In this document: piece by piece, positions 1,914 through 16,129 of the stretch
How positions within the stretch are numbered: the first letter of the stretch is position 1
Layout: every line of letters begins with the position of its first letter
DNA from: a virus
Taxonomy: Duplodnaviria > Heunggongvirae > Uroviricota > Caudoviricetes
DNA: 16,129 nucleotides
IMG/VR virus record: IMGVR_UViG_2563367001_000002
Strand: one strand, 5' to 3'
Notes under the pieces: generated by a model
Databases searched by the model: none
What the model saw: the letters and a program-made list of their open reading frames with translations, nothing else
Told to the model about the DNA's origin: nothing
Position numbers and translations under genes: made by a program

Positions 1914-2239
1914 AGACCTTCCGCTGGAAAGTGAAACCCGGTATGGATGTGACATCGGCTCCTTCCGTCAGGGAGGTGCGCTTTGGTGATGGCTATTCCC
2001 AGCGTGCGCCTGCCGGGCTGAACGCTGACCTGAAAACGTACAGCGTGACGCTGTCTGTCTCCCGTGAGGAGGCCACGGCGCTGGAGTCGTTTCTGGCTGA
2101 GCACGGGGGCTGGAAGGCCTTTCTGTGGACGCCGCCTTATGGTTACAGGCAGATAAAGGTGACCTGCGCAAAATGGTCGTCGCAGGTCAGTATGTTGCGT
2201 GTTGAGTTCAGCGCAGAGTTTAAACAGGTGGTGAACTGA
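1910..2239 (+). CDS. M: Minor tail protein M (lambda gpM-like), 109 aa
   Basis: 109-aa ORF, the same length as lambda M, beginning MKTFRWKVKPGMDV... Translationally coupled to H upstream (ATGA) and L downstream (TGATG). Conserved gene order. Confidence 0.9.
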   Translation: MKTFRWKVKPGMDVTSAPSVREVRFGDGYSQRAPAGLNADLKTYSVTLSVSREEATALESFLAEHGGWKAFLWTPPYGYRQIKVTCAKWSSQVSMLRVEFSAEFKQVVN

Positions 2240-2937
2240 TGCAGGATATCCGGCAGGAAACACTGAATGAATGCACCCGTGCGGAGCAGTCGGCCAGCGT
2301 GGTGCTCTGGGAAATCGATCTGACAGAGGTTGGTGGAGAACGTTATTTTTTCTGTAATGAGCAGAACGAAAAAGGTGAGCCGGTCACCTGGCAGGGGCGA
2401 CAGTATCAGCCGTATCCCATTCAGGGGAGCGGTTTTGAACTGAATGGCAAAGGCACCAGTACGCGCCCCACGCTGACGGTTTCTAACCTGTACGGTATGG
2501 TCACCGGGATGGCGGAAGATCTGCAGAGTCTGGTCGGCGGAACGGTGGTCCGGCGTAAGGTTTACGCCCGTTTTCTGGATGCGGTGAACTTCGTCAACGG
2601 AAACAGTTATGCCGATCCGGAGCAGGAGGTGATCAGCCGCTGGCGCATTGAGCAGTGCAGCGAACTGAGCGCGGTGAGTGCCTCCTTTGTACTGTCCACG
2701 CCGACGGAAACGGATGGCGCTGTTTTTCCGGGACGTATCATGCTGGCCAACACCTGCACCTGGACCTATCGCGGTGACGAGTGCGGTTATAGCGGTCCGG
2801 CTGTCGCGGATGAATATGACCAGCCAACGTCCGATATCACGAAGGATAAATGCAGCAAATGCCTGAGCGGTTGTAAGTTCCGCAATAACGTCGGCAACTT
2901 TGGCGGCTTCCTTTCCATTAACAAACTTTCGCAGTAA
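2239..2937 (+). CDS. L: Minor tail protein L (lambda gpL-like), 232 aa, Cys-rich C-terminus
   Basis: 232-aa ORF, the same length as lambda L. C-terminal cysteine cluster (CTWTYRGDECGY...CSKCLSGCKF) as in the gpL family. Conserved position. Confidence 0.9.
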   Translation: MQDIRQETLNECTRAEQSASVVLWEIDLTEVGGERYFFCNEQNEKGEPVTWQGRQYQPYPIQGSGFELNGKGTSTRPTLTVSNLYGMVTGMAEDLQSLVGGTVVRRKVYARFLDAVNFVNGNSYADPEQEVISRWRIEQCSELSAVSASFVLSTPTETDGAVFPGRIMLANTCTWTYRGDECGYSGPAVADEYDQPTSDITKDKCSKCLSGCKFRNNVGNFGGFLSINKLSQ

Positions 2938-2941
2938 TCCC

Positions 2942-3685
2942 ATGACACAGACAGAATCAGCGATTCTGGCGCACGCCCGGCGATGTGCGCCAGCGGAGTC
3001 GTGTGGCTTCGTGGTGAGAACGCCGAAGGGGGAAAGATATTTTCCCTGCGTGAATATCTCCGGTGAGCCGGAGGCGTATTTCCGGATGTCGCCGGAGGAC
3101 TGGCTGCGGGCAGAAATGCAGGGTGAGATTGTGGCGCTGGTCCACAGCCACCCCGGTGGTCTGCCCTGGCTGAGTGAGGCTGACAGGCGGCTGCAGGTGC
3201 AGAGCGATTTGCCGTGGTGGCTGGTCTGCCGGGGTGAGATTCATAAATTCCGCTGTGTGCCGCATCTTACCGGGCGGCGCTTTGAGCACGGGGTGACGGA
3301 CTGTTACACGCTGTTCCGGGATGCTTATCATCTGGCGGGGATTGAGATGCCGGATTTTCATCGCGGGGATGACTGGTGGCGTCACGGTCAGAATCTCTAT
3401 CTGGATAATCTGGAGGCCACAGGGCTGTATCAGGTGCCGTTGTCATCAGCACAACCGGGCGATGTGCTGCTGTGCTGTTTTGGTTCATCGGTGCCGAATC
3501 ATGCCGCCATTTACTGTGGTGATGGCGAGCTGCTGCACCATATTCCTGAACAACTGAGCAAACGAGAGAGGTATACCGACAAATGGCAGCGACGCACACA
3601 CTCCCTCTGGCGTCACCGGGCATGGCGCGCATCTGCCTTTACGGGGATTTACAACGATTTGGCCGCCGCATCGACCTTCGTGTGA
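2942..3685 (+). CDS. K: Tail tip assembly protein K (lambda gpK-like; MPN/JAMM-type and NlpC/P60-type domains)
   Basis: ORF in frame 2900..3685. I chose the ATG at 2942 (MTQTESAILAHARR...) because that N-terminus is the conserved one for this family. The lambda reference annotation would start at the internal ATG at 3086 (MSPEDW...), and the ORF track offers 2900, which overlaps L. HSHPGG is a JAMM-like motif; a Cys/His-containing C-terminal half is NlpC/P60-like. The 3' end overlaps I by about 100 nt, as in lambda. Confidence 0.85.
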   Translation: MTQTESAILAHARRCAPAESCGFVVRTPKGERYFPCVNISGEPEAYFRMSPEDWLRAEMQGEIVALVHSHPGGLPWLSEADRRLQVQSDLPWWLVCRGEIHKFRCVPHLTGRRFEHGVTDCYTLFRDAYHLAGIEMPDFHRGDDWWRHGQNLYLDNLEATGLYQVPLSSAQPGDVLLCCFGSSVPNHAAIYCGDGELLHHIPEQLSKRERYTDKWQRRTHSLWRHRAWRASAFTGIYNDLAAASTFV

Positions 3686-4254
3686 AAACGGGGGCTGAAG
3701 CCATCCGGGCGCTGGCCACACAGCTCCCGGCGTTTCGTCAGAAACTGAGCGACGGCTGGTATCAGGTACGGATTGCCGGGCGGGACGTCAGCACGTCCGG
3801 ATTGACGGCGCAGTTACATGAGGTTCTGCCTGACGGCGCTGTGATTCATATTGTTCCCAGAGTCGCCGGGGCCAAGTCAGGGGGCGTATTCCAGATTGTT
3901 CTGGGGGCTACCGCCATTGCCGGATCATTCTTTACTGCCGGAGCCACCCTTGCAGCATGGGGGGCAGCCATTGGGGCCGGTGGTATGACCGGTATCCTGT
4001 TTTCTCTCGGTGCCAGTATGGTACTTGGTGGTGTGGCGCAGATGCTGGCACCGAAAGCTAGAACTCCCCGTACACAGACAACGGATAACGGTAAGCAGAA
4101 CACCTATTTCTCCTCACTGGATAACATGGTTGCCCAGGGCAATGTTCTGCCTGTTCTGTACGGTGAAATGCGCGTGGGGTCGCGGGTGGCTTCTCAGGAG
4201 ATCAGCACGGCAGACGAGGGGGACGGTGGTCAGGTTGTGGTGATTGGTCGTTGA
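3583..4254 (+). CDS. I: Tail tip assembly protein I (lambda gpI-like), 223 aa
   Basis: 223-aa ORF, the same length as lambda I, beginning MAATHTLPLASPGMARICLYGDLQRFGRR... with a Gly/Ala-rich hydrophobic C-terminal half. Overlaps the K 3' end in another frame. Confidence 0.9.
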   Translation: MAATHTLPLASPGMARICLYGDLQRFGRRIDLRVKTGAEAIRALATQLPAFRQKLSDGWYQVRIAGRDVSTSGLTAQLHEVLPDGAVIHIVPRVAGAKSGGVFQIVLGATAIAGSFFTAGATLAAWGAAIGAGGMTGILFSLGASMVLGGVAQMLAPKARTPRTQTTDNGKQNTYFSSLDNMVAQGNVLPVLYGEMRVGSRVASQEISTADEGDGGQVVVIGR

Positions 4255-4274
4255 TGAAAAACGTTTTATGTGAA

Positions 4275-4300
4275 ACCGCCTCAGGGCGGTTTTGTCGTTT
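4275..4300 (+). terminator. Short I-J intergenic hairpin with U-rich tail (possible attenuator)
   Basis: ACCGCC-tcag-GGCGGT (6-bp stem, 4-nt loop) followed by TTTTGTCGTTT, sitting between the I stop (4254) and the J start (4315). Weak stem, so low confidence. Confidence 0.3.
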
Positions 4301-4314
4301 CTGGAGCGTGAGGA

Positions 4315-7300
4315 ATGGGTAAAGGCAGCAGTAAGGGGCATACCCCGCGCGAAGCGAAGGACAACCTGAAATCATCCCAGATGCTGAGCGTGATAGACGC
4401 CATCAGTGAAGGGCCGATTGAAGGTCCGGTGGACGGATTAAAAAGTGTGCTGCTGAACAGTACGCCAGTGCTGGACAGTGAGGGGAATACCAATATCTCC
4501 GGTGTCACGGTGGTTTTCCGGGCAGGTGAGCAGGAGCAGACACCGCCGGAGGGATTTGAATCCTCCGGCTCCGAGACGGTGCTGGGTACGGAAGTGAAGT
4601 ACGACACGCCGATTACCCGGACCATCACGTCTGCAAACATCGACCGTCTGCGCTTTACCTTCGGTGTGCAGGCACTGGTGGAAACCACCTCAAAGGGGGA
4701 CAGGAATCCATCGGAAGTCCGCCTGCTGGTTCAGATACAACGTAACGGTGGCTGGGTGACGGAAAAAGACATCACCATTAAGGGTAAAACCACCTCGCAG
4801 TATCTGGCCTCAGTGGTGGTGGATAACCTGCCGCCGCGCCCGTTTAATATCCGGATGCGCAGGATGACGCCGGACAGCACCACAGACCAGCTGCAGAACA
4901 AAACGCTCTGGTCGTCATACACCGAAATCATCGATGTGAAACAGTGCTACCCGAACACGGCACTGGTCGGCGTGCAGGTGGACTCGGAGCAGTTCGGCAG
5001 CCAGCAGGTGAGCCGTAATTATCATCTGCGCGGGCGTATTCTGCAGGTGCCGTCGAACTATAACCCGCAGACGCGGCAATACAGCGGTATCTGGGACGGG
5101 ACGTTTAAACCGGCATACAGCAACAACATGGCCTGGTGTCTGTGGGATATGCTGACCCATCCGCGCTACGGCATGGGGAAGCGTCTCGGTGCGGCGGATG
5201 TGGACAAATGGGCGCTGTATGTCATCGGCCAGAATTGCGACCAGTCGGTGCCGGATGGCTTTGGTGGCACGGAGCCGCGCATCACCTGTAATGCCTGGCT
5301 GACCACGCAGCGCAAGGCGTGGGATGTGCTCAGTGATTTCTGCTCGGCGATGCGCTGTATGCCGGTATGGAACGGGCAGACGCTGACGTTCGTGCAGGAC
5401 CGGCCATCGGATAAGGTGTGGACCTATAACCGTAGTAATGTGGTGATGCCGGATGATGGCGCGCCGTTCCGCTACAGCTTCAGCGCCCTGAAGGACCGTC
5501 ATAATGCCGTTGAGGTGAACTGGATTGACCCGAATAACGGCTGGGAGACGGCGACAGAGCTTGTGGAGGACACGCAGGCCATTGCCCGTTACGGTCGTAA
5601 CGTCACGAAGATGGATGCCTTTGGCTGTACCAGCCGGGGGCAGGCACACCGCGCCGGGCTGTGGCTGATTAAAACAGAACTGCTGGAAACGCAGACCGTG
5701 GATTTCAGCGTCGGCGCAGAAGGGCTTCGCCATGTACCGGGTGATGTTATTGAAATCTGCGATGATGACTATGCGGGGATCAGCATTGGCGGGCGCGTGC
5801 TGGCGGTGAACAGCCAGACCCGGACGCTGACGCTCGACCGTGAAATCACGCTGCCATCCTCCGGTACCACGCTGATAAGCCTGGTTGACGGGCAGGGGAG
5901 TCCGGTCAGCGTGGAGGTTCAGTCCGTCACCGACGGCGTGAAGGTGAAAGTGAGTCGGGTTCCTGACGGCGTTGCCGGATACAGCGTGTGGGGGCTGAAG
6001 CTGCCGACGCTGCGCCAGCGCCTGTTCCGCTGTGTGAGTATCCGTGAGAACGACGACGGCACGTATGCCATCACCGCCGTGCAGCATGTACCGGAAAAAG
6101 AGGCCATCGTGGATAACGGGGCGTACTTTGACGGCGACCAGAGCGGCACGGTGAATGGTGTCACGCCGCCAGCGGTGCAGCACCTGACCGCCGAAGTCAC
6201 CGCAGACAGCGGGGAATATCAGGTGCTGGCGCGCTGGGACACGCCGAAGGTGGTGAAGGGCGTGAGCTTCCTGCTCCGTCTGACCGTAACAGCGGATGAC
6301 GGCAGTGAGCGGCTGGTCAGCACGGCCCGGACGACGGAAACCACATACCGCTTCAGGCAACTGGCGCTGGGGAACTACAGGCTGACAGTCCGGGCGGTAA
6401 ATGCGTGGGGGCAGCAGGGCGATCCGGCGTCGGTATCGTTCCGGATTGCCGCACCGGCAGCACCGTCGAGGATTGAGCTGACGCCGGGCTATTTTCAGAT
6501 AACCGCCACGCCGCATCTTGCCGTTTATGACCCGACGGTACAGTTTGAGTTCTGGTTCTCGGAAAAGCGGATTACCGATATCAGGCAGGTTGAAACCACA
6601 GCCCGCTATCTTGGTACGGCGCTGTACTGGATAGCCGCCAGTATCAATATCAAACCGGGCCATGATTATTACTTTTATATCCGCAGTGTGAACACCGTTG
6701 GCAAATCGGCATTCGTGGAGGCCGTCGGTCGGGCGAGCGATGATGCGGAAGGTTACCTGGATTTTTTCAAAGGCAAGATAACCGAATCCCATCTCGGCAA
6801 GGAGCTGCTGGAAAAAGTCGAGCTGACGGAGGATAACGCCAGCAGACTGGAGGAGTTTTCGAAAGAGTGGAAGGACGCCAACGATAAGTGGAATGCCATG
6901 TGGGGCGTCAAAATTGAGCAGACCAAAGACGGCAAACATTATGTCGCGGGGCTTGGCCTCAGCATGGAGGACACGGAGGAAGGCAAACTGAGCCAGTTCC
7001 TGGTTGCCGCTAACCGTATCGCATTTATTGACCCGGCAAACGGGAATGAAACGCCGATGTTTGTGGCGCAGGGCAATCAGATATTCATGAACGAAGTGTT
7101 CCTGAAATATCTGACGGCTCCCACCATTACCAGCGGCGGTAATCCTCCGGCATTTTCCCTGACACCGGACGGGCGGCTGACGGCGAAAAATGCCGATATC
7201 AGCGGTAACGTGAATGCGAACTCCGGGACGCTCAACAACGTCACGATTAACGAGAACTGCCGGGTTCTGGGAAAACTGTCCGCGAACCAGATTGAAGGCG

Positions 7301-7710
7301 ATCTCGTTAAAACAGTGGGCAAAGCTTTCCCCCGTGACTCCCGAGCACCGGAGCGGTGGCCATCAGGGACCATTACCGTCAGGGTTTATGACGATCAGCC
7401 GTTTGACCGGCAAATTGTTATTCCGGCGGTGGCATTCAGTGGCGCTAAGCATGAGAGAGAGCATACTGATATTTACTCCTCATGCCGTCTGATAGTGCGG
7501 AAAAACGGTGCTGAAATTTATAACCGTACCGCGCTGGATAATACGCTGATTTACAGTGGCGTTATTGATATGCCTGCCGGTCACGGTCACATGACACTGG
7601 AGTTTTCGGTGTCAGCATGGCTGGTAAATGGCTGGTATCCCACAGCAAGTATCAGCGATTTGCTGGTTGTTGTGATGAAGAAAGCCACTGCAGGCATCAC
7701 GATTAGCTGA
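4315..7710 (+). CDS. J: Host specificity protein J (tail tip / central fibre, lambda gpJ-like), 1131 aa
   Basis: 1131-aa ORF (lambda J is 1132 aa) beginning [20 protein letters not shown]... Long collinear similarity to lambda J as I recall it. The last ~150 aa differ from lambda (receptor-binding region). SD-like GGAG upstream. Confidence 0.92.
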
Positions 7711-7729
7711 ATTTTATAACCCAGATACG

Positions 7730-7753
7730 GGCACCAGAAATGGTGCCTTTTTT
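7730..7753 (+). terminator. Rho-independent terminator downstream of J
   Basis: GGCACCA-gaaa-TGGTGCC (7-bp perfect stem, GNRA-type tetraloop) immediately followed by TTTTTT; 20 nt after the J stop. Confidence 0.8.
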
Positions 7754-7777
7754 ATTGCAGAAAAGCGAGAGGTAATT

Positions 7778-8377
7778 ATGCGTAAATTATGTGCTGTTAT
7801 TCTGTCCGCAGTAGTCTGGCTGGTTGCCGCTGGTACGCCAGCGAGCGCAGCAGAGCATCAGTCCACACTAAGCGCCGGGTATCTTCAGACCCATACTGAT
7901 ATGCCAGGCAGTGATGACCTGAAGGGCATTAACGTGAAATACCGTTATGAATTTACGGACACGCTGGGGCTGGTGACGTCATTCAGTTATGCCAATGCCA
8001 AAGATGAGCAAAGAACGCATTACAGCGATACCCGCTGGCATGAAGATTCAGTGCGTAACCGCTGGTTCAGCATGATGGCGGGGCCATCTGTACGCGTGAA
8101 TGAATGGTTCAGTGCTTATGCGATGGCAGGTGTGGCTTACAGCCGTGTTTCGACGTTCTCCGGGGATTATCTCCGCGTAACTGACAACAAGGGGAAAACG
8201 CACGATGTGCTGACCGGAAGTGATGACGATCGCCACAGCAACACGTCTCTGGCGTGGGGAGCTGGCGTGCAGTTTAACCCGACCGAATCCGTGGCCATTG
8301 ATATTGCTTATGAAGGCTCCGGCAGTGGCGACTGGCGCACTGACGGTTTCATCGTGGGTGTCGGTTATAAGTTCTGA
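7778..8377 (+). CDS. lom: Lom outer membrane protein (Ail/Lom/PagC family beta-barrel), 199 aa
   Basis: Signal peptide (MRKLCAVILSAVVWLVAAGTPASA), alternating aromatic beta-strand pattern, C-terminal ...GVGYKF. Position right after J as in lambda. Own SD (GAGAGG) and flanking terminators. Confidence 0.9.
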   Translation: MRKLCAVILSAVVWLVAAGTPASAAEHQSTLSAGYLQTHTDMPGSDDLKGINVKYRYEFTDTLGLVTSFSYANAKDEQRTHYSDTRWHEDSVRNRWFSMMAGPSVRVNEWFSAYAMAGVAYSRVSTFSGDYLRVTDNKGKTHDVLTGSDDDRHSNTSLAWGAGVQFNPTESVAIDIAYEGSGSGDWRTDGFIVGVGYKF

Positions 8378-8431: not shown

Positions 8432-8441
8432 TGGAGTGGAT

Positions 8442-10820
8442 ATGGCAGCAGTAAAAATCTCAGGTGTGCTGAAAGATGGTGCGGGAAAACCAATACAGAA
8501 CTGCACTATTCAACTGAAGGCAAAGCGTAACAGCACCACGGTACTGGTGAACACGGTGGCTTCTGAAAATCCGGATGAAGCCGGACGTTACAGCATGGAT
8601 GTTGAGTATGGCCAGTACAGCGTCACCCTGCTGGTTGAAGGTTTTCCGCCTTCACATGCCGGGACCATTACCGTCTATGAAGGCTCCAGACCAGGTACGC
8701 TGAATGATTTTCTCGGTGCCATGACGGAAGATGATGTCATGCCGGAGGCATTGCGTCGTTTTGAGGAAATGGTGGAAGAAGCGGCACGCAACGCTGAAGC
8801 CGCCTCTCAGAGCGCAGCGGCGGCAAAGAAATCCGAAACTGCAGCGGCATCATCGAAGAACGCGGCGAAAACCTCAGAAACGAATGCAGCTAATAGTGCA
8901 CAGGCGGCAGCGACCTCAAAGACTGCATCGGCAAACTCCGCGACAGCAGCCAAAAAATCAGAAACCAACGCGAAAAATAGCGAGACAGCCGCAAAGACGA
9001 GCGAAACCAACGCAAAGTCCAGCCAGACGGCAGCGAAAACCAGCGAAACGAATGCCAAAGCCAGTGAAACTGCGGCAAAAAACAGCCAGGTTGCAGCAGC
9101 CCAAATCGAGAGCGCGGCAGCCGGTTCTGCGACTTCAGCAGCTGGATCAGCAACTGCTGCGGCTAACAGCCAGAAAGCTGCGAAGACGAGTGAAACTAAC
9201 GCAAAGTTCAGCCAGACGGCAGCGAAGACCAGCGAAACGAATGCCAAAGCCAGCGAAACTGCGGCGAAAAACAGTCAGGATGCAGCAGCCCAAAGCGAGA
9301 GTGCTGCAGCTGGTTCTGCAAGCGCGGCGGCTGCTTCTGCCACTGCATCAGCCAACAGTCAAAAAGCAGCAAAAACCAGTGAAACCAATGCAAAGACAAG
9401 CGAGACTGCAGCGGCGAACTCGGCGAAAGCATCGGCAGCAAGCCAGACAGCAGCTAAAGCAAGTGAAGACGCAGCCAGAGAGTATGCAAGTCAGGCAGCA
9501 GAGCCGTATAAATATGTCTTACAGCCGCTGCCTGATGTGTGGATACCATTTAACGATTCGCTGGATATGATTACGGGCTTTTCGCCATCATATAAAAAAA
9601 TTGTTATTGGTGACGATGAAATAACGATGCCTGGCGACAAGATTGTTAAGTTTAAACGTGCATCGAAAGCAACCTATATTAACAAATCTGGTGTGCTGAC
9701 AGAGGCTGCCATTGACGAGCCACGATTTGAACGTGATGGCCTGCTTATTGAGGGGCAAAGAACAAACTACATGCTCAATTCGGAAAGCCCTGCAAGTTGG
9801 GGGCGATCATCAAATATGGATGTGCCCGAAACAGGGACGGATAATTTTGGTTTTACCTATGGAAAGTTTGTCTGCAACGATTCTCTGATTGGGCAAACCT
9901 CAGCCATTAATATGGCATCAATTGCTGCAACAAAGTCAGTTGATGTCTCAGGCGATAATAAACACGTGACAACCTCATGTCGTTTTAAAACAGAACTGCA
10001 GGTAAGGTTGCGTATCCGGTTTGATAAATATGACGGTAGCACAACAACTTTTCTTGGTGATGCGTATATTGATACACAAACGCTTGAAATTAATATGACA
10101 GGCGGTGCTGCCTCAAGAATTACAGCGAGAGTCAGAAAGGACGAAGCTACCGGATGGATTTTTGCAGAGGCAACAATTCAGGCAATTGATGGGGAGTTAA
10201 AAATAGGCTCTCAGATACAGTATTCTCCTGGGCAGGGTGGGGCAACAGTATCTGGTGACTATATTTATCTTGCCACCCCACAAGTAGAGAATGGGCCGTG
10301 TGTATCATCATTTATTATTTCAGGAGGCAGCGCAACGACAAGAGCCAGTGATTTGGTTAGTATCCCCACCAGAAATAATCTTTATAAGTTACCATTTACT
10401 TTTTTACTTGAGATTCATAAAAACTGGGATATTGCACCAAACGCCGCACCCCGCGTGTGGGATATAGCAGCAGCCAATACCGGGCAATCAGCAATTGCAG
10501 CAATCAACAGAGGTAGTGGTAAGTTATATATGAGTCTGTCAAACCCTTCAGGCTCGTATGTTAATAGCGCAGCGACAGATGTATTTGCAGAGAAAACCAC
10601 ATTTGGATGTATTGCAAAAGCTGATGGTCACTTTCATGTGGTGACAAATGGTAAAGCGGTTAATGAAGTTTATTGTGAATATAATGGCGTGACCGCTGAT
10701 AAAAATATCCGATTTGGAGGGCAGACGAATACTGGAGAACGACATCTGTTTGGCCATATTCGCAATTTCCGCATATGGCATAAAGAATTAAATGACAGGC
10801 AATTAAAAGAGGTCGTATGA
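8442..10820 (+). CDS. stf: Side tail fibre protein (Stf-like N-terminus, Ala/Ser/Thr-rich repeat shaft, LamG/ConA-like C-terminal domain)
   Basis: N-terminus MAVKISGVLKDGAGKPIQNCTIQLKAKRNSTT... matches the lambda Stf N-terminus as I recall it. I chose the ATG at 8442 with GGAG 5-8 nt upstream; the ORF track's 8436 is a GTG two codons earlier. The central part has KTSETNAK-type repeats. The C-terminus ends ...IRFGGQTNTGERHLFGHIRNFRIWHKELNDRQLKEVV, the typical end of a LamG (concanavalin-like lectin) domain. Confidence 0.8.
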   Translation: MAAVKISGVLKDGAGKPIQNCTIQLKAKRNSTTVLVNTVASENPDEAGRYSMDVEYGQYSVTLLVEGFPPSHAGTITVYEGSRPGTLNDFLGAMTEDDVMPEALRRFEEMVEEAARNAEAASQSAAAAKKSETAAASSKNAAKTSETNAANSAQAAATSKTASANSATAAKKSETNAKNSETAAKTSETNAKSSQTAAKTSETNAKASETAAKNSQVAAAQIESAAAGSATSAAGSATAAANSQKAAKTSETNAKFSQTAAKTSETNAKASETAAKNSQDAAAQSESAAAGSASAAAASATASANSQKAAKTSETNAKTSETAAANSAKASAASQTAAKASEDAAREYASQAAEPYKYVLQPLPDVWIPFNDSLDMITGFSPSYKKIVIGDDEITMPGDKIVKFKRASKATYINKSGVLTEAAIDEPRFERDGLLIEGQRTNYMLNSESPASWGRSSNMDVPETGTDNFGFTYGKFVCNDSLIGQTSAINMASIAATKSVDVSGDNKHVTTSCRFKTELQVRLRIRFDKYDGSTTTFLGDAYIDTQTLEINMTGGAASRITARVRKDEATGWIFAEATIQAIDGELKIGSQIQYSPGQGGATVSGDYIYLATPQVENGPCVSSFIISGGSATTRASDLVSIPTRNNLYKLPFTFLLEIHKNWDIAPNAAPRVWDIAAANTGQSAIAAINRGSGKLYMSLSNPSGSYVNSAATDVFAEKTTFGCIAKADGHFHVVTNGKAVNEVYCEYNGVTADKNIRFGGQTNTGERHLFGHIRNFRIWHKELNDRQLKEVV
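8991..9413 (+). repeat. In-frame 189-bp (63-aa) tandem repeat inside stf, about 2.2 copies, roughly 90% identical
   Basis: Unit A 8991-9179 (gcaaagacgagcgaaaccaacgcaaag...) recurs as unit B 9180-9368 (gcgaagacgagtgaaactaacgcaaag...), with a partial third copy to about 9413. Protein-level repeat ...AKTSETNAK(S/F)SQTAAKTSETNAKASETAAKNSQ...ANSQKA. Confidence 0.85.
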
Positions 10821-11095
10821 AAGATTTAACTTTGAAGTTTCATGACAAACTGCAGTTTAAGGCCTTCCTGTCATCTCTTGGCTGGGCGGAAGATGAAGAC
10901 CTCCAGAATAAACTGTTAGTTGATGAAATTGGTTTCACCTACACAGAAACAGGGGTAACAGAAGAGGGAGAACCTGTCTGTATCCGGAATGATGGTTATT
11001 TTGTCAACATTCGCATTCTTGATGACTTGTTTGATGTTTCTGTATTCTCTGATTATGTCGTGGAGCTGGAAACACCGCTTCGGGAATGGAGCTGA
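10817..11095 (+). CDS. Hypothetical acidic protein, 92 aa, translationally coupled to stf
   Basis: ATG overlaps the stf stop (ATGA, 10817-10820). Good SD (AAGAGG) 6 nt upstream. No TM segment, net acidic. I recognise no family. About 41% GC. Confidence 0.55.
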   Translation: MKDLTLKFHDKLQFKAFLSSLGWAEDEDLQNKLLVDEIGFTYTETGVTEEGEPVCIRNDGYFVNIRILDDLFDVSVFSDYVVELETPLREWS

Positions 11096-11107
11096 AAGGA
11101 GGAAATA

Positions 11108-11401
11108 ATGGATATAAGCCCCTTACTTCATGCACTTTGTGCTGTGGCTGCGCAGATACTGGTTGGTCTTTTTACCGGAAACTGGGCTTACGGAGCGATA
11201 GCCGGTTGTACGTTCTTCATTGCGCGTGAACATACCCAGGCAGAATATCGCTGGATTGAAATGTTCGGGCATGGCAAGCGAATGAATATGCCGTGGTGGG
11301 GCGGTTTTGATCCGCGAGCTTGGGATGTGGCAAGCCTGATGGATTTTGCTGTGCCGGTGGTGGCGTGTCTGCTGGTCTGGCTGTTGGTTAATCGTGGGTG
11401 A
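11108..11401 (+). CDS. Hypothetical small membrane protein, 97 aa, two predicted TM helices
   Basis: Strong SD (AAGGAGG) 5-6 nt before the ATG. Hydrophobic stretches LLHALCAVAAQILVGLFTGNWAYGAIAGCTFFI and FAVPVVACLLVWLLV. Family not recognised. Confidence 0.55.
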   Translation: MDISPLLHALCAVAAQILVGLFTGNWAYGAIAGCTFFIAREHTQAEYRWIEMFGHGKRMNMPWWGGFDPRAWDVASLMDFAVPVVACLLVWLLVNRG

Positions 11402-11411
11402 AAAAAGGTGA

Positions 11412-11541
11412 GCTGTATATGCAACGGAGGAAGAAACCCCGTTGCTGGAAGCCAGGAAAAAGTATCGGGTGTTGCTGAACCGTGTTGATACATCAACTGC
11501 ACCTGATATTGAGTGGCCTACGAACCCTGTCAGGGAGTAAT
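11412..11541 (+). pseudogene. tfa: Tail fibre assembly protein (Tfa) C-terminal remnant, about 42 codons (tfaD-like)
   Basis: Frame translates ...[39 protein letters not shown], matching the conserved Tfa C-terminal motif (...[26 protein letters not shown]). No N-terminal part; an in-frame stop lies immediately upstream (11409-11411). Confidence 0.7.
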
Positions 11542-11554
11542 CATTGGGATTATG

Positions 11555-11604
11555 CCGCAGCACGTCTTAAGCAAGAACGTGCTGCGGTTGGATGCTATTT
11601 TTTC
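11555..11604. terminator. Hairpin between the convergent Tfa remnant and methyltransferase gene (candidate bidirectional terminator)
   Basis: Perfect 11-bp stem CCGCAGCACGT / ACGTGCTGCGG (11555-11565 and 11577-11587) with an 11-nt loop; a T-run (TATTTTTT) lies 9 nt downstream on the + strand. No U-tract on the minus-strand side. Confidence 0.45.
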
Positions 11605-12263
11605 CCTGAAGCGGAAAACATTACTACAGTACCTTGAACCTTGGTTTTAACATTCTCGAAATGCTCTGAGAGTATATGTGTTAAGCCTTCTTCGGAATCT
11701 TTTGTGTTTGAAAAGATGCCTTTCTGATTGTAAATGCGCATCAGTTTTTGACCGAAGCTATTGTGCACAACGCCGTCACCAAGAATTGTGGCTCCGTATA
11801 GAGTTCCATCGTCAGTTAAGGCCTGCGCCGCATTGCGTATTACACAGCTTTTTGTAGATATATTTCCAGGCAGGCAGTGAAGAAGGTAAAACATGGAAAT
11901 GGAATCAAATTGACCATGTAACGCCGCGGGATAAGGATCAAAAACATCATGGCTAATTTTATGTTTAATTTTTGATTCCCCAGCCCTTGTAGATGCCGCG
12001 TTCAGGCTAGCTTCGTTCAAATCCATTAAAGATATCAGACTACTCTCAGGTACGTGAGTAAGGTAAAACCCAGTTCCAACACCAATATCCAGATGGTTGT
12101 TACCTAAATGTTCCAGAAAGTGTGGAAGAAGGTGTTCCTTTGTAGGACATCCCCATGCAAGCCGATTTGATACTCCCAAAACCCACCAGTCATAAAGCTT
12201 TAGGGTAAGTGGTGTGTAAATTTTAGCCCCATCATCTGTGTTTTTTTTCATTAATTTCACCAT
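11595..12263 (-). CDS. ybcY: Class I SAM-dependent methyltransferase (ybcY-like), 222 aa
   Basis: Motif I LDIGVGTG (GxGxG), acidic residue in LMDLNE about 20 aa later, motif II-like FDSISMFYLLHCLP. Sits between two Tfa remnants exactly like ybcY in the K-12 DLP12 tfaD-ybcY-tfaX arrangement; the symbol is assigned from that context. A second in-frame ATG at codon 5 (CDS 11595..12251) has a better SD (GGTGA). Low GC. Confidence 0.7.
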   Translation of the reverse strand: MVKLMKKNTDDGAKIYTPLTLKLYDWWVLGVSNRLAWGCPTKEHLLPHFLEHLGNNHLDIGVGTGFYLTHVPESSLISLMDLNEASLNAASTRAGESKIKHKISHDVFDPYPAALHGQFDSISMFYLLHCLPGNISTKSCVIRNAAQALTDDGTLYGATILGDGVVHNSFGQKLMRIYNQKGIFSNTKDSEEGLTHILSEHFENVKTKVQGTVVMFSASGKK

Positions 12264-12319
12264 GTTATAGTTTTATTTGTGAATTAAATCAATTATGGCG
12301 ATGAATTACAAGGGGTTAA

Positions 12320-12618
12320 ATGCTGCCGCAGCATAGCGATATTGAAATAGCCTGGTATGCTTCGATACAGCAGGAGCCGAATGGCTGGAAGACCGTCACC
12401 ACACAGTTCTACATCCAGGAATTCAGTGAGTATATTGCGCCACTGCAGGATGCTGGGAAATCGCAACGGAGGAAGAAAGATCGTTGCTGGAGGCATGGAA
12501 TAAATATCGGGTATTGTTGAATCGTGTTGATACATCAGTAGCTCTGGGTATGAAGCTGTTTGTAACTCATGTTACAGTAACAACCATTACTATCTCGAAG
12601 GTGCAAAATGTATATTGA
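12320..12618 (+). pseudogene. tfa: Tail fibre assembly protein pseudogene (tfaX-like), frameshifted
   Basis: One frame gives ...[10 protein letters not shown] and, after a shift of frame near 12455, ...[30 protein letters not shown]... These are both parts of the conserved Tfa C-terminal domain, split across frames. The C-terminus diverges from the Tfa consensus after VDTS. Confidence 0.6.
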
Positions 12619-12746
12619 TTTGATATTTTATAAATTTACTTCGAATCTGGCACGTCAACTTTTGATTAAAGTAATATCAGTTTTCGGCGAAAAAAGGACC
12701 GTGTATATGAGACGATTTCATACAAGAATAACAAAAATATGAATAT

Positions 12747-12780
12747 GCTCCCAATGCAATATATGTTTTGCATTGGGAGC
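12747..12780 (-). terminator. Rho-independent terminator for the minus-strand peptidase gene
   Basis: Perfect 12-bp stem GCTCCCAATGCA / TGCATTGGGAGC with a 10-nt loop, 22 nt downstream of the peptidase stop. On the minus-strand transcript it is followed by AUAUUCAUAUUUUUGUUAUU. Confidence 0.65.
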
Positions 12781-12801
12781 AAATAGCGGAATATTTTGAA
12801 A

Positions 12802-14286
12802 TTATTGTATTTCTGCTTCAGAATTTCCTGGGCAGTATATATTTTCTATTTTTTGTGGAGTGATCAGGTGATGTACAACTGCTTTATCTACACATAAATT
12901 AACTCCGGTGAGAGCTAATGTATGCCCATCACCATTTATTGTTAGTAACGGGCTGGAAAATTTCTCTGCCATCTTACGGGCATTAATCCAGGGCGTTGTT
13001 GGGTCGTATTTGTGTGCTACAAACAGTAAACCAGAGGGCAGAACAGTATTTTTCAGGCGAGTTTTGTTCAGGTCGCTATGTATTGGCCATAATTCACAAA
13101 AATCAGGTGAATCGGAACGTCCATTGTCAAAGTTAATGGCCGGGAAGGCATTCGCAAGAGCGTCTTTTCGGGATTTTCGCTCTTCTGGTGTTAATTGCTC
13201 ATCCCCCTGATCTACACAGAGGATTACCCCCGAAGCATCGCTTGACTCTTCTGAGGCTATCGGAGCACTGAGCGCAGTTTCAATTTCATTACTGACAATC
13301 CCCTGAGAGAACTGGCGTATGGCAGTTGCAAGGGTTGGCCATGATGAACGCCATAGCAGAAGGTCTGTTGTTAATGATATGAGTTCATCTGAAGATATAT
13401 TTTCTCCCTTACTGTCTAATAAAGGTTTGTGATGTAATTTTGATAATAGCTCATGGAACTGAGTTATTGCCTTATCTCTGTCTGAAGAAAGCGGGCAACT
13501 TTTTGTACGCGCACACCAGGATGCAAAGCGATCAAACGTTTCCTGATAACTCTGTGCCTGTTTGAGTTGCCATGTGAAGTTGTCCTCCAGGTCATCGATA
13601 TCGACGACTCCATCAAGAACGATAGATCTTACGTTGTAGGGAAAACGTTCTGCATATAAGGCTGCAATTTGAGTTCCATACGAATACGCCACGGCTGTCA
13701 GTTGTTTATCCCCCAAGGCTTGCCTAATACGATCAATATCGTATACAGCCTCGTTAGAGCCGATATGGCGAATGACTTCGGCTCCGGTATTATGGATACA
13801 GGCATTAATTTTATTTAATACTTGTTGCTTTTCGGTTATGTTTTCCTGAGTCTCTGTATCTGATTGCCGGCAGTTTATTGTCGGAGTGGACTGTCCGACG
13901 CCTCGAGGATCAAATCCAATAATATCCCATGACTCACGAAGATTTGTGACTGGCCAGTCAAAGTTAATATAAGGATTTATGCCTGGTAACCCGGGACCAC
14001 CACTTATTATCAGGATACTTCCTTTATGCTTGCTTTTTGCCGGCAATTTTGTCAACGCTAGTTTGACTTGTGATTTTTTTTCATAAGAAGCATCTCCGCC
14101 TGTGTCTGTATATTTTAATGGAACAGACAAATAACCACATAGTAAGTCAGGAGACGGTTTTTCCTCACCAAACCAGTGGTTGAATTGACTGGCCATACAG
14201 GATTGCCACTGTATCTGCTGGGCAGATACGGTTACTGGTAGAAGTAACGTTAAAACAACTTTGAAATGAGTAATTATTTTTCGCAT
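12802..14286 (-). CDS. Signal-peptide-bearing (exported) alpha/beta-hydrolase peptidase, S33 / TAP-like (tripeptidyl or prolyl aminopeptidase family), 494 aa
   Basis: N-terminal signal peptide (MRKIITHFKVVLTLLLPVTVSA|QQ). GGPG oxyanion motif (ILIISGGPGLPG), GFDPRGVGQS, nucleophile elbow AYSYGT (GxSYG-type), C-terminal Asp/His region (INGDGHTLAL). Low GC. Confidence 0.75.
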   Translation of the reverse strand: MRKIITHFKVVLTLLLPVTVSAQQIQWQSCMASQFNHWFGEEKPSPDLLCGYLSVPLKYTDTGGDASYEKKSQVKLALTKLPAKSKHKGSILIISGGPGLPGINPYINFDWPVTNLRESWDIIGFDPRGVGQSTPTINCRQSDTETQENITEKQQVLNKINACIHNTGAEVIRHIGSNEAVYDIDRIRQALGDKQLTAVAYSYGTQIAALYAERFPYNVRSIVLDGVVDIDDLEDNFTWQLKQAQSYQETFDRFASWCARTKSCPLSSDRDKAITQFHELLSKLHHKPLLDSKGENISSDELISLTTDLLLWRSSWPTLATAIRQFSQGIVSNEIETALSAPIASEESSDASGVILCVDQGDEQLTPEERKSRKDALANAFPAINFDNGRSDSPDFCELWPIHSDLNKTRLKNTVLPSGLLFVAHKYDPTTPWINARKMAEKFSSPLLTINGDGHTLALTGVNLCVDKAVVHHLITPQKIENIYCPGNSEAEIQ

Positions 14287-14424
14287 TGTGTCTCTGAATA
14301 TCGGAATAAAGATAAGATTTGAATATATTGAGGTCTTGTGTTGCGGTAAGAGATTACACGTTATGACATAGGTTAAATGCTTACAAAATTAGTGGATATT
14401 GTCTACTTGTAACTGTAAACAAAT

Positions 14425-14453
14425 TCCCCGGGGTTATACAATACCACCGGGGA
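14425..14453 (-). terminator. Candidate terminator for ompT
   Basis: TCCCCGG ... CCGGGGA inverted repeat (7-bp stem, 15-nt loop) about 20 nt downstream of the ompT stop, followed on the minus-strand transcript by AUUUGUUUAC. Confidence 0.5.
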
Positions 14454-14472
14454 GAAAATCTGGTTAACTTCG

Positions 14473-15426
14473 TTAAAAGGTGTACTTAAGACCAGCAGTA
14501 GTGATGAAGTTATAGTTTTCTATGCCTGCACCATTTTTGCTGTAGTCTGAAGTGTTATCATTGTGATCATAAAGTGAAGTATTACCTTTTTTATTCGTAA
14601 CCCGATTCCATGCGCCTTCAACATAAACTTTTGCGTTAGGTGTTACGTAATAACCTGCATTGACTGCAACAGAATAGTAATTTTGGTCTTTGACTTTACT
14701 GCGATAAGTGATTCTTTTTCCTGGGTCATAGTGCTCATCGTTATCAGATGCTTCCACCCAGCCGCTGTATTTAAATGTGCCACCTAGCTCAAAATCTTCA
14801 TAACGATAACTTCCAGTCAAGCCAATGTAGGGCATTTTAAAACGTTGTTTGTAGCCGATTGCTCTTTCTCCATTCGGGAAGGAGCCGATATCATCTCTGA
14901 ATCCCTCCTCAGAACTGTAGATATAGGAACCACCTCTGGCTGTAAAGCTATAACGGCTTTCCTGATATCCGGCCATGAGTCCCAGGCGGTAATTGGGTTC
15001 GTTGAGGAGCCAGCCTTTGATATTCAGATCAAATTCGTTGGCATAATTGAGTTGTGTATCAGGGTGCCTACTTTCATCTGTCCAGGTTCCGGGGTTACTG
15101 GAATCCATCCAGTCCTGATCGACCATATTGCCACCTCGGCTGCCGAGAGTAGTCCAGCCCGCAGCCCCAATAGATATCTGGGGCATCAAATCCCAATTAA
15201 TTGCACCTTTAATAATTGCAGCGTTATTGAATTTCCAGTCAAGTTGACTGACTTTTCGGCCTCCTTCTTCGGCTAGATAAACACGCTCTTTTGTTTTTCC
15301 GCTCAGAGTTCCAAGACTAATGTCCGCATTTATGTTGTCAGGAGTAAACGATAAAGTCTCGGTAGAAGCAAAAGAGCTGATCGCAATAGGGGTTGTCAGG
15401 ACTATTCCCAGAAGTTTCGCCCGCAT
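14473..15426 (-). CDS. ompT: Outer membrane protease OmpT (omptin, peptidase family A26), 317 aa
   Basis: 317-aa ORF with signal peptide MRAKLLGIVLTTPIAISSFA and C-terminal ...TTAGLKYTF. Essentially collinear with E. coli K-12 OmpT as I recall it. GGAG SD 8 nt upstream of the ATG. Confidence 0.93.
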   Translation of the reverse strand: MRAKLLGIVLTTPIAISSFASTETLSFTPDNINADISLGTLSGKTKERVYLAEEGGRKVSQLDWKFNNAAIIKGAINWDLMPQISIGAAGWTTLGSRGGNMVDQDWMDSSNPGTWTDESRHPDTQLNYANEFDLNIKGWLLNEPNYRLGLMAGYQESRYSFTARGGSYIYSSEEGFRDDIGSFPNGERAIGYKQRFKMPYIGLTGSYRYEDFELGGTFKYSGWVEASDNDEHYDPGKRITYRSKVKDQNYYSVAVNAGYYVTPNAKVYVEGAWNRVTNKKGNTSLYDHNDNTSDYSKNGAGIENYNFITTAGLKYTF

Positions 15427-15700
15427 AAAAGTTCTCCATTCAATCGTTTTAATGATTGAATATGTATTTTTTATATCTAACTTAATGAGTCAATTACATA
15501 TTGCTCCACTGTTTATATTTTGTTTAGTATTGAATGATTATCACAATGCGCTATCTGTTTTTGGTTTAATTATCTGTTATTGTTTTATGTTGCGGTTTTA
15601 CTGTGTGGTTTTTTATGCTTTTGTGGTGTTTTTATCTATTTAAGCGCCATGCCTTTAGAGGCATATAAGCGAAAATAGCATGAGGTTTATCCTCAATTGC
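15427..15700 (-). promoter_or_regulatory. AT-rich ompT upstream/promoter region
   Basis: Very AT-rich, T-tract-rich non-coding DNA directly upstream of ompT. Contains a 7-bp inverted repeat TTCAATC-N8-GATTGAA at 15437-15458. No promoter elements mapped with confidence. Confidence 0.4.
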
Positions 15701-15848
15701 TATGTTTTTTGGTACAAAAAAGAGGGACAAAACTGAGACACATAAGGCCTCACAATGGCTTGCAAGGCTTTACATGTTTTGAGGTAGTGGGACGTGTGAG
15801 CGCAGAGATGGCGCGGTAAGTTGTTGACTTAAAATGTCGTTCTAGGAA

Positions 15849-15893
15849 CTTCTAAGTCGTGGGCCGCAGGTTCGAATCCTGCAGGGCGCGCCA
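15849..15893 (+). tRNA. Partial tRNA-Arg (argU-type) 3' segment: anticodon loop through CCA, with no functional 5' half (attachment-site core)
   Basis: cttctaagtcgtgggccgcaggttcgaatcctgcagggcgcgcca matches the 3' ~45 nt of E. coli argU (UCU anticodon; T-arm GCAGG-TTCGAAT-CCTGC; acceptor 3' strand and CCA). The required acceptor 5' strand GCGCCCT is absent; upstream there is only a degenerate tRNA-like stretch starting at 15811 (gcgcggtaag...). Confidence 0.65.
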
Positions 15894-15900
15894 TTAAAAT

Positions 15901-16129
15901 TCAATCAGTTACGCCTTCTTTATTTCTTCTATAATTCCAGAGTGGGACATTATCACCAAAAATGTCGTCTATTTTCCTCGCGTGCTCAGTCAAATGATTA
16001 GGAGCAAGGTGAGCATATCTACGAACCATTTCTCTGGACTCCCATCCGCCCATTTCCTGAAGCACTGATAATGGGACGCCTGACTGAATCAGCCAGCTTG
16101 CCCAGGTGTGTCTGAGGTCATGGAAACGG
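15901..16129 (-). CDS. int: Tyrosine-type integrase (P4/DLP12-type), C-terminal 76 codons; 5' end outside window
   Basis: Minus-strand translation: [75 protein letters not shown]. Carries the HxLRHT box and the catalytic-Tyr region RRYAHL of tyrosine recombinases. The stop lies 7 bp from the tRNA fragment's CCA end. Not listed in the ORF track because it is truncated by the window edge. Confidence 0.85.

Follow-up and report, generated by a model that had tools for sequence, protein, structure and literature searches.

The locus described here is known and has long been annotated, as tfaD-ybcY-tfaX of the DLP12 prophage of Escherichia coli K-12, and it is a case of ordinary lambdoid mosaicism. 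A search of the literature found no paper discussing the structure of tfaD-ybcY-tfaX, which appeared in the tables of promoter screens only. The window that we analysed is the whole of a 16,129-nt stretch of DNA from a virus of the Caudoviricetes (IMG/VR record IMGVR_UViG_2563367001_000002), and several described phages and prophages can be compared with it.

In K-12 the locus (b0561-b0563) lies upstream of appY and ompT. Its gene order, its orientation, the chimeric start of tfaX and the argU core match those of the window. Positions 11421-12542 are collinear with tfaD-ybcY-tfaX over 1.1 kb at 96.7% identity, and the segment from ompT to the prophage end is 96.9% identical to K-12 DLP12. K-12 has a long tfaD (187 aa) joined to terminase debris, in place of the ORF97 and 120-nt remnant of the window; K-12 ybcY is a pseudogene, whereas the methyltransferase gene of the window is intact; and K-12 tfaX, with a TGA stop and another 3' half, precedes appY, whereas its counterpart in the window carries a 7-nt deletion and is followed by a hydrolase gene.

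Among deposited phage genomes, 2G7b, ev243 and PhiR49_1 contain the whole block, as does PhiR26_1, where it stands after an intact tfa. In Escherichia phage 2G7b (Nesevirus) the genes gp25-gp31 correspond to window positions 11097-16129, from ORF97 to the integrase, at 99.0% identity. The first tfa repeat (copy A), the methyltransferase, the frameshifted second repeat (copy B), the hydrolase, ompT and the attachment site are found in 2G7b, ev243 and PhiR49_1 as they are in the window. The fibre tip of 2G7b differs from that of the window, an extra 345-aa tail fibre gene lies between its homologues of ORF92 and ORF97, and its copy A differs at three sites.

Phage lambda has the same layout at the end of its late operon and the start of its b region, where tfa is followed by a hairpin and by leftward cargo, ea47. 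Window positions 11420-11589 are 86.7% identical to the tfa 3' end and hairpin of lambda; unlike the window, lambda has one tfa gene, which is intact, and lacks both the methyltransferase and a further tfa fragment. In phage 21 the fibre cassette consists of stf, ORF92, ORF97 and a tfa remnant, and the junction between ORF97 and tfa is identical to that of the window. The phage 21 remnant ends after 57 nt, where sitDCBA follows, and phage 21 has neither the methyltransferase nor copy B.

Morons and mosaic joints of lambdoid phages are concepts that came from comparisons of HK97 and HK022. The cargo in the window is moron-like: its G+C content is lower (0.41-0.43, against 0.49-0.55 in ORF97 and copy A), it is bounded by a hairpin, and the methyltransferase is present or absent between conserved neighbours. 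It differs from a typical moron in having pieces of one gene on both sides, which is less usual, and in that its promoter is only a candidate.

The repeat pair

Each repeat is a fragment of the tail fibre assembly gene tfa, from its conserved C-terminal part, and between the two lies an intact methyltransferase gene on the minus strand. A sequence-only reading of the window had recognised the conserved Tfa 3' end in two fragments of the same orientation, with about 85% identity over roughly 80 nt (11421-11505 and 12457-12540), on either side of a minus-strand gene like ybcY. Alignment bears this out with nearly the same coordinates. The ungapped direct repeat pairs 11421-11495 with 12463-12537, of which 64 of the 75 nt match (85.3%), and the similarity is significant at the nucleotide level, blastn of the window against itself returning the pair at E 3e-18. 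Both copies also match lambda Tfa, copy A at E 5e-16 and copy B at E 3e-11. The longest uninterrupted identity between them is 16 nt. The window contains no third tfa-like segment, and a search for an intact tfa frame that might have been overlooked found none there.

Copies A and B are recombination joints. We class them as pseudogene fragments and not as functional members of the Tfa family because start or N-terminal codons are missing from both, and copy B is in addition frameshifted and without its 3' end. A working assembly protein would not be expected from either.

The fibre cassette and copy A

The side tail fibre gene of the window (8436..10820, plus strand, 794 aa) is of the phage-21 type (Pfam phage_tail_N, E 7e-67) and is collinear with its counterparts in phage 21 and 2G7b. 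It forms the start of the fibre cassette, the right edge of which is copy A. ORF92 (10817..11095, plus strand) is a small gene that always follows a phage-21-type fibre gene; it belongs to phrog_1361 (E 3e-42), is present in phage 21, PhiR49_2 and 2G7b, and gave no match in searches of Pfam and NCBIfam. ORF97 (11108..11401, plus strand; phrog_1443, E 2e-58), another small gene, sits where tfa would be in phage-21-type cassettes. The phage 21 record describes its product as a putative membrane protein, with two transmembrane domains annotated.

Copy A is a tfa 3' remnant (11421..11540, plus strand) corresponding to lambda Tfa codons 156-194 and the stop codon. Its in-frame translation of 39 residues is 84.6% identical to lambda Tfa residues 156-194. 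The start codon and codons 1-155 are absent and an in-frame stop lies directly upstream, in agreement with the earlier remark that the first copy lacks its whole N-terminus; the RefSeq label for its equivalent is 'tail fiber assembly protein, incomplete, missing N-terminus'. The stretch that joins ORF97 to the remnant (11402..11420, plus strand) was aligned with phage 21, HannyBb, 2G7b, PhiR26_1, K-12 and lambda. Some of its bases may be decayed tfa sequence, with a gap of 9 nt, and homology to K-12 tfaD begins exactly at 11421. A terminator-like hairpin (11554..11588) separates the convergent tfa remnant and methyltransferase gene; its fold of -28.6 kcal/mol has a z of -4.3, and none of 200 shuffles was equally stable. 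Lambda homology extends to 11589, and lambda too has a terminator-like hairpin after tfa.

The same edge is found in other phages. Window positions 11095-11477 are 99.7% identical to phage 21 over 383 nt. Around the junction of ORF97 and the tfa remnant the shared sequence runs up to 11477 in phage 21, where sitDCBA begins, up to 11518 in HannyBb, where a DNA invertase gene begins, and through the terminator in PhiR49_2, where a dinI-like gene begins, so that one edge is followed by any of these or by the methyltransferase, depending on the phage. Very different genes follow this edge in phage 21, HannyBb and PhiR49_2: copy A is the invariant right-hand border of the phage-21-type cassette and not a scar of methyltransferase capture. 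In relatives whose fibres are of the lambda type, an intact tfa takes the position of copy A. The sequence-only reading had proposed a search for such phages, and PhiR26_1, with a tfa of 194 aa before the whole block, is one.

The HannyBb invertase gene lies just after the tfa remnant, and in Mu and P1 tfa genes are located inside invertible segments (a match to P1 was obtained). Both facts would suit a site-specific switch, in which the repeats were crossover sites of an invertible or excisable fibre segment such as Mu G, P1 C or e14 P. We give this reading practically no chance. It was rejected on the orientation of the repeats, which are direct and not inverted, and on the lack of an invertase gene. 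The annotations of the block in 2G7b, IAI39 and Combat2C1 contain no such gene, and the ORFs of the window from the fibre gene to the attachment site are all accounted for. The rearrangement variants that would be expected were not found among 5,426 genomes, the phage records and 80 prophage loci from IMG/VR.

The methyltransferase gene

The gene between the repeats (11595..12263, minus strand) encodes an intact class I SAM-dependent methyltransferase of the ybcY family (222 aa; phrog_2132, E 1e-156). It matches the Pfam families Methyltransf_12, Methyltransf_23, Methyltransf_25 and Methyltransf_11, scoring 37.5 bits for Methyltransf_12 (cut-off 30), 28.6 for Methyltransf_23 (27) and 24.4 for Methyltransf_11 (21.2). 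Among solved structures, juvenile-hormone acid methyltransferase and UbiG come nearest (E about 1e-3), and neither a specific family nor a close solved structure was found. An identity as a DNA methyltransferase was considered for 11595..12263 and rejected, only generic small-molecule-type families being matched; the predicted protein resembles small-molecule methyltransferases and not DNA methyltransferases.

A divergent intergenic region (12264..12319) separates the methyltransferase from the chimeric ORF that contains copy B. The promoter-like site on its minus strand (12319-12292) is weak and no better than chance. Between ybcY and tfaX of K-12, a constitutive-promoter site for the RpoD holoenzyme is listed from a SELEX screen (PMC3946193).

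The spacing between methyltransferase and chimera is constant in 78 of the 80 IMG/VR prophage loci, a set that was kept for carrying the methyltransferase. The gene is always linked to copy B and not always to copy A (O157:H7 and Shigella are examples). A bacterial origin is plausible for it because diverged homologues occur in Enterobacter chromosomes; in the GTDB species genomes these are 61-65% identical and stand in non-phage or other contexts, and none has tfa or phrog_3893 as a neighbour. A host-derived methyltransferase could thus have been trapped between two separate fibre-module replacements, each of which left one tfa scar, and copy A of the window does trace the replacement of a fibre cassette. 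We nevertheless think this course of events improbable. Where the fibres are of the lambda type, the left copy is an intact and presumably working tfa and no scar; the linkage is with copy B and not with both copies; adjacent tfa remnants lacking the methyltransferase were not found in the 5,426 genomes or in phage records; and one misaligned join suffices for the duplication. The gene, moreover, stands behind the tfa terminator, in the place that is normal for the first leftward gene of the b region. The methyltransferase is ordinary cargo in this slot, like ea47 in lambda. Of the earlier idea of recombination scars around a captured methyltransferase, the recombination joints stand, whereas copy A is better read as a cassette edge and the methyltransferase as a gene in its normal b-region place.

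Copy B and the chimeric tfaX frame

The second fragment had been taken for a tfa remnant. This holds for its tfa part, which makes up just one half of a chimeric ORF; the rest belongs to phrog_3893. The 5' part of this 'tfaX' ORF (12320..12424, plus strand) consists of about the first 35 codons of a small gene of the phrog_3893 type (E 4e-7), the match spanning residues 3-37 of the chimera, and an intact homologue of 79 aa is present in Klebsiella phage Kp4887-3. These 35 codons are not derived from tfa. For about 12338-12418, minus strand, RefSeq gives a pseudo-CDS of the 'DinI family'. We reject this assignment: there is no similarity to the DinI-like protein of a related locus, and the translation has no Pfam match even at an E of 1. 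The plus strand at this position is the phrog_3893 fragment.

Copy B is an internal tfa fragment (12413..12537, plus strand) corresponding to lambda Tfa codons ~132-182. One frame matches lambda Tfa residues 154-182 and the other reaches back to about residue 132; codons 1 to ~131 and the last ~12 codons are missing. The frameshift, which had been noticed from the sequence alone, results from the loss of 7 nt (TAGATCT, present in PhiR26_1 and K-12) between 12455 and 12456. When the 7 nt are restored the ORF matches Pfam PF02413 (Caudo_TAP) with an E of 9e-18 and 65 bits (cut-off 22.1), through its residues 31-77 and covering profile positions 75-121 of 131 only. In E. albertii and in 25 of the 80 IMG/VR loci copy B runs on through the tfa stop and terminator, and its 3' end was originally complete.

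The fusion point between phrog_3893 and tfa is identical in 15 of 15 compared sequences, E. albertii and Shigella included. Copy B differs from four intact tfa alleles at 14-18 of 114 nt, 9.5-11.5 of these differences being synonymous; dS is 0.45-0.59 and dN 0.05-0.08, giving a dN/dS of about 0.1 as estimated from 38 codons only. Since the differences from intact tfa are mostly synonymous, copy B came from a separate functional allele and not from a local duplication. In a local duplication a methyltransferase cassette would have inserted in a single tfa, doubling its 3' end, and the copies would then have drifted apart. The repeats are indeed direct and flank one gene, and both copies reach the tfa stop and terminator in some lineages, which gives the block a cassette-like look. 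Such an origin is very unlikely, however: a dN/dS of this size is not expected of a dead duplicate, the 5' end of copy B is fused to an unrelated gene fragment, the closest intact tfa in the phage collection has about 76% amino-acid identity to copy B at most, and the copy A allele is interchangeable across lineages.

An undisrupted chimeric ORF of 88-101 aa occurs in E. albertii, Shigella, PhiR26_1 and Combat2C1. It has a PHROG family of its own, phrog_2341, and may therefore have a function. Together with the annotation of tfaX as a CDS in K-12 and the SELEX promoter site, this would fit an expressed TfaX chimera that, for example, hinders fibre assembly by a superinfecting phage, or repeats that are selected as recombination linkers. 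The ORF has, however, been disrupted independently by the 7-nt deletion in the window, by the TGA in K-12 and by an IS66-family insertion just after the ORF in O157:H7; its 3' end varies by lineage; and copy A has no start codon. We consider functional elements of this kind a very doubtful explanation. There is little likelihood, too, that the chimera, as a phrog_3893 N-terminus joined to the Tfa oligomerisation domain, poisons or redirects the fibre assembly of competitors, or that the tfa 3' end and terminator are a selected linker; if the latter were true, the methyltransferase cassette would ride along with any fibre module.

The right flank

A terminator-like hairpin formed by an inverted repeat (12743..12784, minus strand) lies downstream of the gene for an alpha/beta hydrolase (12802..14286, minus strand, 494 aa; Pfam Abhydrolase_1, E 3e-33). 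The hydrolase is cargo linked to this lineage's right junction of copy B, and K-12 has appY there. The next cargo is a phage-borne ompT (14473..15426, minus strand, 317 aa), named after its annotation in homologous records. The attachment-site core (15846..15895) is the 3' end of the argU tRNA-Arg, with the integrase gene next to it. The core lies in both matches of this region, to the right end of K-12 DLP12 and to the tRNA-Arg/integrase side of strain 104, and window positions 15846-16129 are 96.5% identical to the tRNA-Arg 3' end and integrase region of strain 104. As the attachment core is followed by the integrase gene, the window is in free-phage gene order.

Exchange at the tfa 3' ends and a search for deletions

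The event is neither local nor recent in this sequence. The arrangement is old: of 5,426 complete E. coli genomes, 3,791 (about 70%) contain 80% or more of 11421-12537. Among the 80 loci, selected for carrying the methyltransferase, there are at least five classes of left junction and at least five of right junction, in many combinations, and all junctions fall in the tfa 3' end or the terminator. In line with the earlier suggestion of a hotspot, the tfa 3' ends appear to behave as an exchange zone at this locus. Between lambda and defective prophages, Red-type recombinases swap stf/tfa segments that are short and diverged (PMC3945230), and the conserved domain of Tfa is the C-terminal one (PMC9608196).

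Deletion of the methyltransferase through the repeats had also been suggested. Synthetic junction queries for the product, joining the ORF97 left flank to the hydrolase right flank, found it in none of the 5,426 genomes, and a query with the full-tfa left flank and the hydrolase right flank found it in none of these genomes and in no phage record. The query for a K-12-type junction with the appY flank was non-discriminating, the twelve best-ranked places all being two-piece matches that include the methyltransferase. With repeats this short and this diverged, deletion at a noticeable rate would be unlikely.

Probable origin, and significance

We consider it very probable that the repeats are joints left behind, as fossils, by module exchange where the late operon of a lambdoid phage of the DLP12 family has its right end. 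The first step would have been a single, ancient join of two lambdoid genomes, non-homologous and out of alignment, in which codon ~35 of a b-region gene of the phrog_3893 family was joined to codon ~132 of another phage's tfa. The left parent would have had its phrog_3893-family gene just beyond the methyltransferase, and the product would have carried its own tfa, the terminator, the leftward methyltransferase, an ORF fusing the phrog_3893 5' part to the tfa 3' part, and the cargo of the right parent. A single join would therefore place the tfa 3' end in the genome twice, in direct order and as two different alleles. We infer this step because an extant left parent was not found: the phage collection, the GTDB species genomes and IMG/VR contain no methyltransferase beside an intact phrog_3893 gene, and the methyltransferase matches (15 in the phage collection and the 80 kept from IMG/VR) are all at least 98.6% identical and either bear the chimera or are cut.

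Comparison of the relatives indicates that the tfa 3' segment, now present twice, has since served repeatedly as a patch of homology for later exchanges. It encodes the conserved C-terminal helical domain of Tfa and is common to otherwise unrelated fibre modules. On the left, a cassette of the phage-21 type (stf, ORF92, ORF97 and the 120-nt tfa tail) replaced a lambda-type stf-tfa and so gave the start-less copy A; on the right, varied cargo (hydrolase-ompT, appY and others) was joined inside or just after copy B. Comparison likewise shows a later loss of the 7 nt from copy B in this lineage.

Beyond annotation hygiene the importance of the locus is small. K-12 'tfaX' should be described as a chimera in which two unrelated genes are joined, nothing supports the 'DinI family' pseudo-CDS that RefSeq places at the locus, and the short tfa tail behind ORF97 belongs to the phage-21-type cassette and records no separate event. 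The locus is a well-sampled example of the tfa 3' end acting as a homology patch, which lets fibre modules on one side and cargo such as the methyltransferase, hydrolase, ompT, appY and the sit operon reassort among lambdoid phages.

The locus and its distribution

The window is the right arm of a lambdoid phage of the DLP12 family and has the gene order of a free phage. Its left part contains the tail genes, J and lom, which are followed by a side fibre gene of the phage 21 type (8436-10820), the small genes ORF92 and ORF97, and a 3' remnant of tfa on the plus strand (copy A, 11421-11540). A strong hairpin follows copy A (11554-11588, -28.6 kcal/mol, z = -4.3), and after it come, in order, a ybcY-type methyltransferase gene (11595-12263, minus strand), an ORF containing an internal tfa fragment (copy B, 12413-12537, plus strand), a gene for a 494-aa alpha/beta hydrolase, and ompT. 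At the right end (14473-16129) ompT is followed by an argU-type attachment core (about 15846-15895) and by the integrase start. Escherichia phage 2G7b matches the window at 99.0% identity from 11097 to the window's end; this match and the free-phage order make ompT and the hydrolase gene cargo of a deposited temperate-phage genome, not only of the defective DLP12 prophage.

The sequence-only reading had described two tfa remnants around the methyltransferase gene. This observation is correct with slightly shifted coordinates: 11421-11495 and 12463-12537 form a direct repeat with 64 of 75 nt matching, and both copies match lambda Tfa. When the window is compared with itself the pair has an E-value of 3e-18, and the one stronger self-match is a repeat within the side tail fibre gene (8976-9224 against 9165-9413, a 189-nt offset, 82% identity over 249 nt). 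The proposal that recombination left a captured methyltransferase between two scars holds in part; ordinary lambdoid mosaicism produced the feature, which is old, widespread and previously annotated. The tfaD – ybcY (pseudogene) – tfaX segment of the K-12 prophage DLP12 shares 96.7% identity with window 11421-12542, and in close relatives RefSeq labels both pieces 'tail fiber assembly protein, incomplete, missing N-terminus'. Of 5,426 complete E. coli genomes, 3,791 carry at least 80% of 11421-12537. Among deposited phages, 2G7b, ev243 and PhiR49_1 carry the block with an ORF97-type left flank, and in PhiR26_1, PhiR30_1 and PhiR29 it is preceded by an intact 194-aa tfa. Near-identical methyltransferase blocks (97-100%) also occur on short contigs of metagenome-assembled genomes labelled Bacillus sp., Planococcaceae and Segatella copri, most likely because E. 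coli prophage DNA contaminated the bins.

The methyltransferase

The gene between copies A and B encodes an intact class I SAM methyltransferase of 222 aa, of the small-molecule type; family and structure comparisons found no DNA-methyltransferase signature in it. It is a cargo gene, with a G+C content below that of ORF97 and copy A, and takes the first leftward b-region position behind the tfa terminator, the slot filled by ea47 in lambda. In O157:H7 strain WS4202 (locus 831-6903) a four-gene cargo, comprising a manganese catalase, two ferritin-like proteins and a general stress protein, lies between an intact tfa and the methyltransferase gene. Homologues of 61-65% identity are found on Enterobacter spp. 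chromosomes near Peptidase_M3, flhB-flhA-flhE and M90 peptidase genes. One of them immediately follows a 178-aa ORF, possibly a further tail-fibre remnant, that has a Peptidase_S74 (endosialidase chaperone) domain.

It had also been suggested that the repeats could mediate deletion of the methyltransferase gene. The longest identical run between copies A and B is 16 nt, shorter than the 23-27 bp or so that efficient recombination by RecA is commonly said to require. None of the 5,426 genomes and no phage record matched synthetic queries for the resulting junction; a further query, with the K-12 flank, was non-discriminating.

Copy A and the fibre cassette

Copy A translates in frame as lambda Tfa residues 156-194; it lacks a start codon and is directly preceded by a stop codon. 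The ORF97–tfa tail join also occurs outside this locus, in front of varied cargo. Phage 21 is 99.7% identical to window 11095-11477 and then continues into sitDCBA, HannyBb is homologous up to 11518, where a DNA invertase gene follows, and in PhiR49_2 homology extends through the terminator to a dinI-like gene. Since the same junction precedes different cargo, the phage-21-type fibre cassette, which has no intact tfa, has copy A as its constant right edge. Within 4399-7848 of the phage 21 record, sitDCBA, an operon for iron/manganese transport, comes after the ORF97–tfa remnant on the other strand; this is a further case of cargo joined within the tfa tail, here at the window equivalent of 11477. 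Up to about 11453, copy A of the window has two otherwise unique bases in common with phage 21, and beyond this point it matches the K-12/PhiR26_1 allele at every base; such a switch is what would be left by a homologous crossover within the tfa tail.

ORF92 (10817..11095, phrog_1361) and ORF97 (11108..11401, phrog_1443), both on the plus strand, always follow the phage-21-type fibre gene, in place of tfa. They may be assembly factors of this fibre; ORF97 is annotated in phage 21 as a putative membrane protein with two transmembrane segments. In 2G7b and IAI39 an extra tail fibre gene of 234-345 aa lies between the two, and the boundaries of the swap between the window and 2G7b are at window 10464 and 11097.

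Copy B and the chimeric ORF

The ORF starting at 12320 is a chimera. Its residues 3-37 match phrog_3893 (E 4e-7), a family to which an intact 79-aa protein of Klebsiella phage Kp4887-3 belongs, and its residues 31-77 match Caudo_TAP (E 9e-18). All 15 sequences compared, those of E. albertii and Shigella among them, share one fusion point, and the chimera therefore arose once. Many genomes, among them IAI39, carry a RefSeq pseudo-CDS labelled 'DinI family protein, incomplete' at 12338-12418 on the minus strand, for which no support was found; the plus strand here is the N-terminal fragment of a phrog_3893 gene.

Copy B matches residues ~132-182 of lambda Tfa in two frames. Compared with PhiR26_1 and K-12, it lacks 7 nt between 12455 and 12456, which breaks the frame; this deletion is rare (1 of 78 IMG/VR loci) and, among the sequences compared, confined to the window/2G7b/IAI39 lineage. 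Copy A has an apparent 9-nt gap, present in all phage-21-type phages compared. Both remnants thus have a small deletion at the same tfa spot (GCTGTAGATCTGGAAATCGC; window 11409-11421 and 12455/12456), which could be a coincidence or a slippage-prone site.

Against four intact tfa alleles, copy B differs at 14-18 positions over 38 codons, 9.5-11.5 of them synonymous (dS 0.45-0.59, dN 0.05-0.08). Because the differences are mostly synonymous, copy B diverged while coding, and by this comparison it comes from another tfa allele and is not a duplicate of copy A that has decayed. Copy B reaches the natural tfa stop and terminator in E. albertii and in 25 of 80 IMG/VR loci, so the original fragment had a complete 3' end. 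Elsewhere this end varies: it has the hydrolase flank in the window type, a different 3' allele with a TGA stop and the appY flank in the K-12 type, and a 3' part 96% like the copy A allele in the Shigella type. In O157:H7 an IS66-family element lies directly after copy B; in WS4202 (ISEc8/IS66 family) window 12536-12544 is matched on both its sides. A function for the chimeric ORF is unlikely, since several lineages carry independent disruptions of it.

Reassortment of the flanks and origin of the locus

Among 80 IMG/VR prophage loci, all carrying the methyltransferase gene, the chimeric ORF starts at a constant distance from it in 78. Left flanks are of at least five classes: a continuous tfa (26 loci), the ORF97 cassette (20), copy A cut at nt 23 (8), a junction within the terminator with various cargo (22), and a complete copy A with upstream sequence unmatched by the probes (4). 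The right flank also falls into at least five classes, and many left and right combinations occur. The constant core between varied flanks defines an invariant unit of terminator, methyltransferase and phrog_3893'::'tfa, and the exchange points on both sides fall in tfa-derived sequence.

The most economical history is a single join followed by repeated exchanges. One misaligned non-homologous join of two lambdoid genomes would have produced both the chimera and the duplicated tfa end, and the comparisons show that homologous exchanges in the conserved 3' segment of tfa took place repeatedly afterwards. Short diverged stf/tfa segments are exchanged between lambda and defective prophages by Red-type recombinases (PMC3945230). 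In Tfa the C-terminal helical domain, encoded by the tfa 3' segment, is conserved, and the N-terminal fibre-binding domain is variable (PMC9608196); homology is therefore kept at this very boundary.
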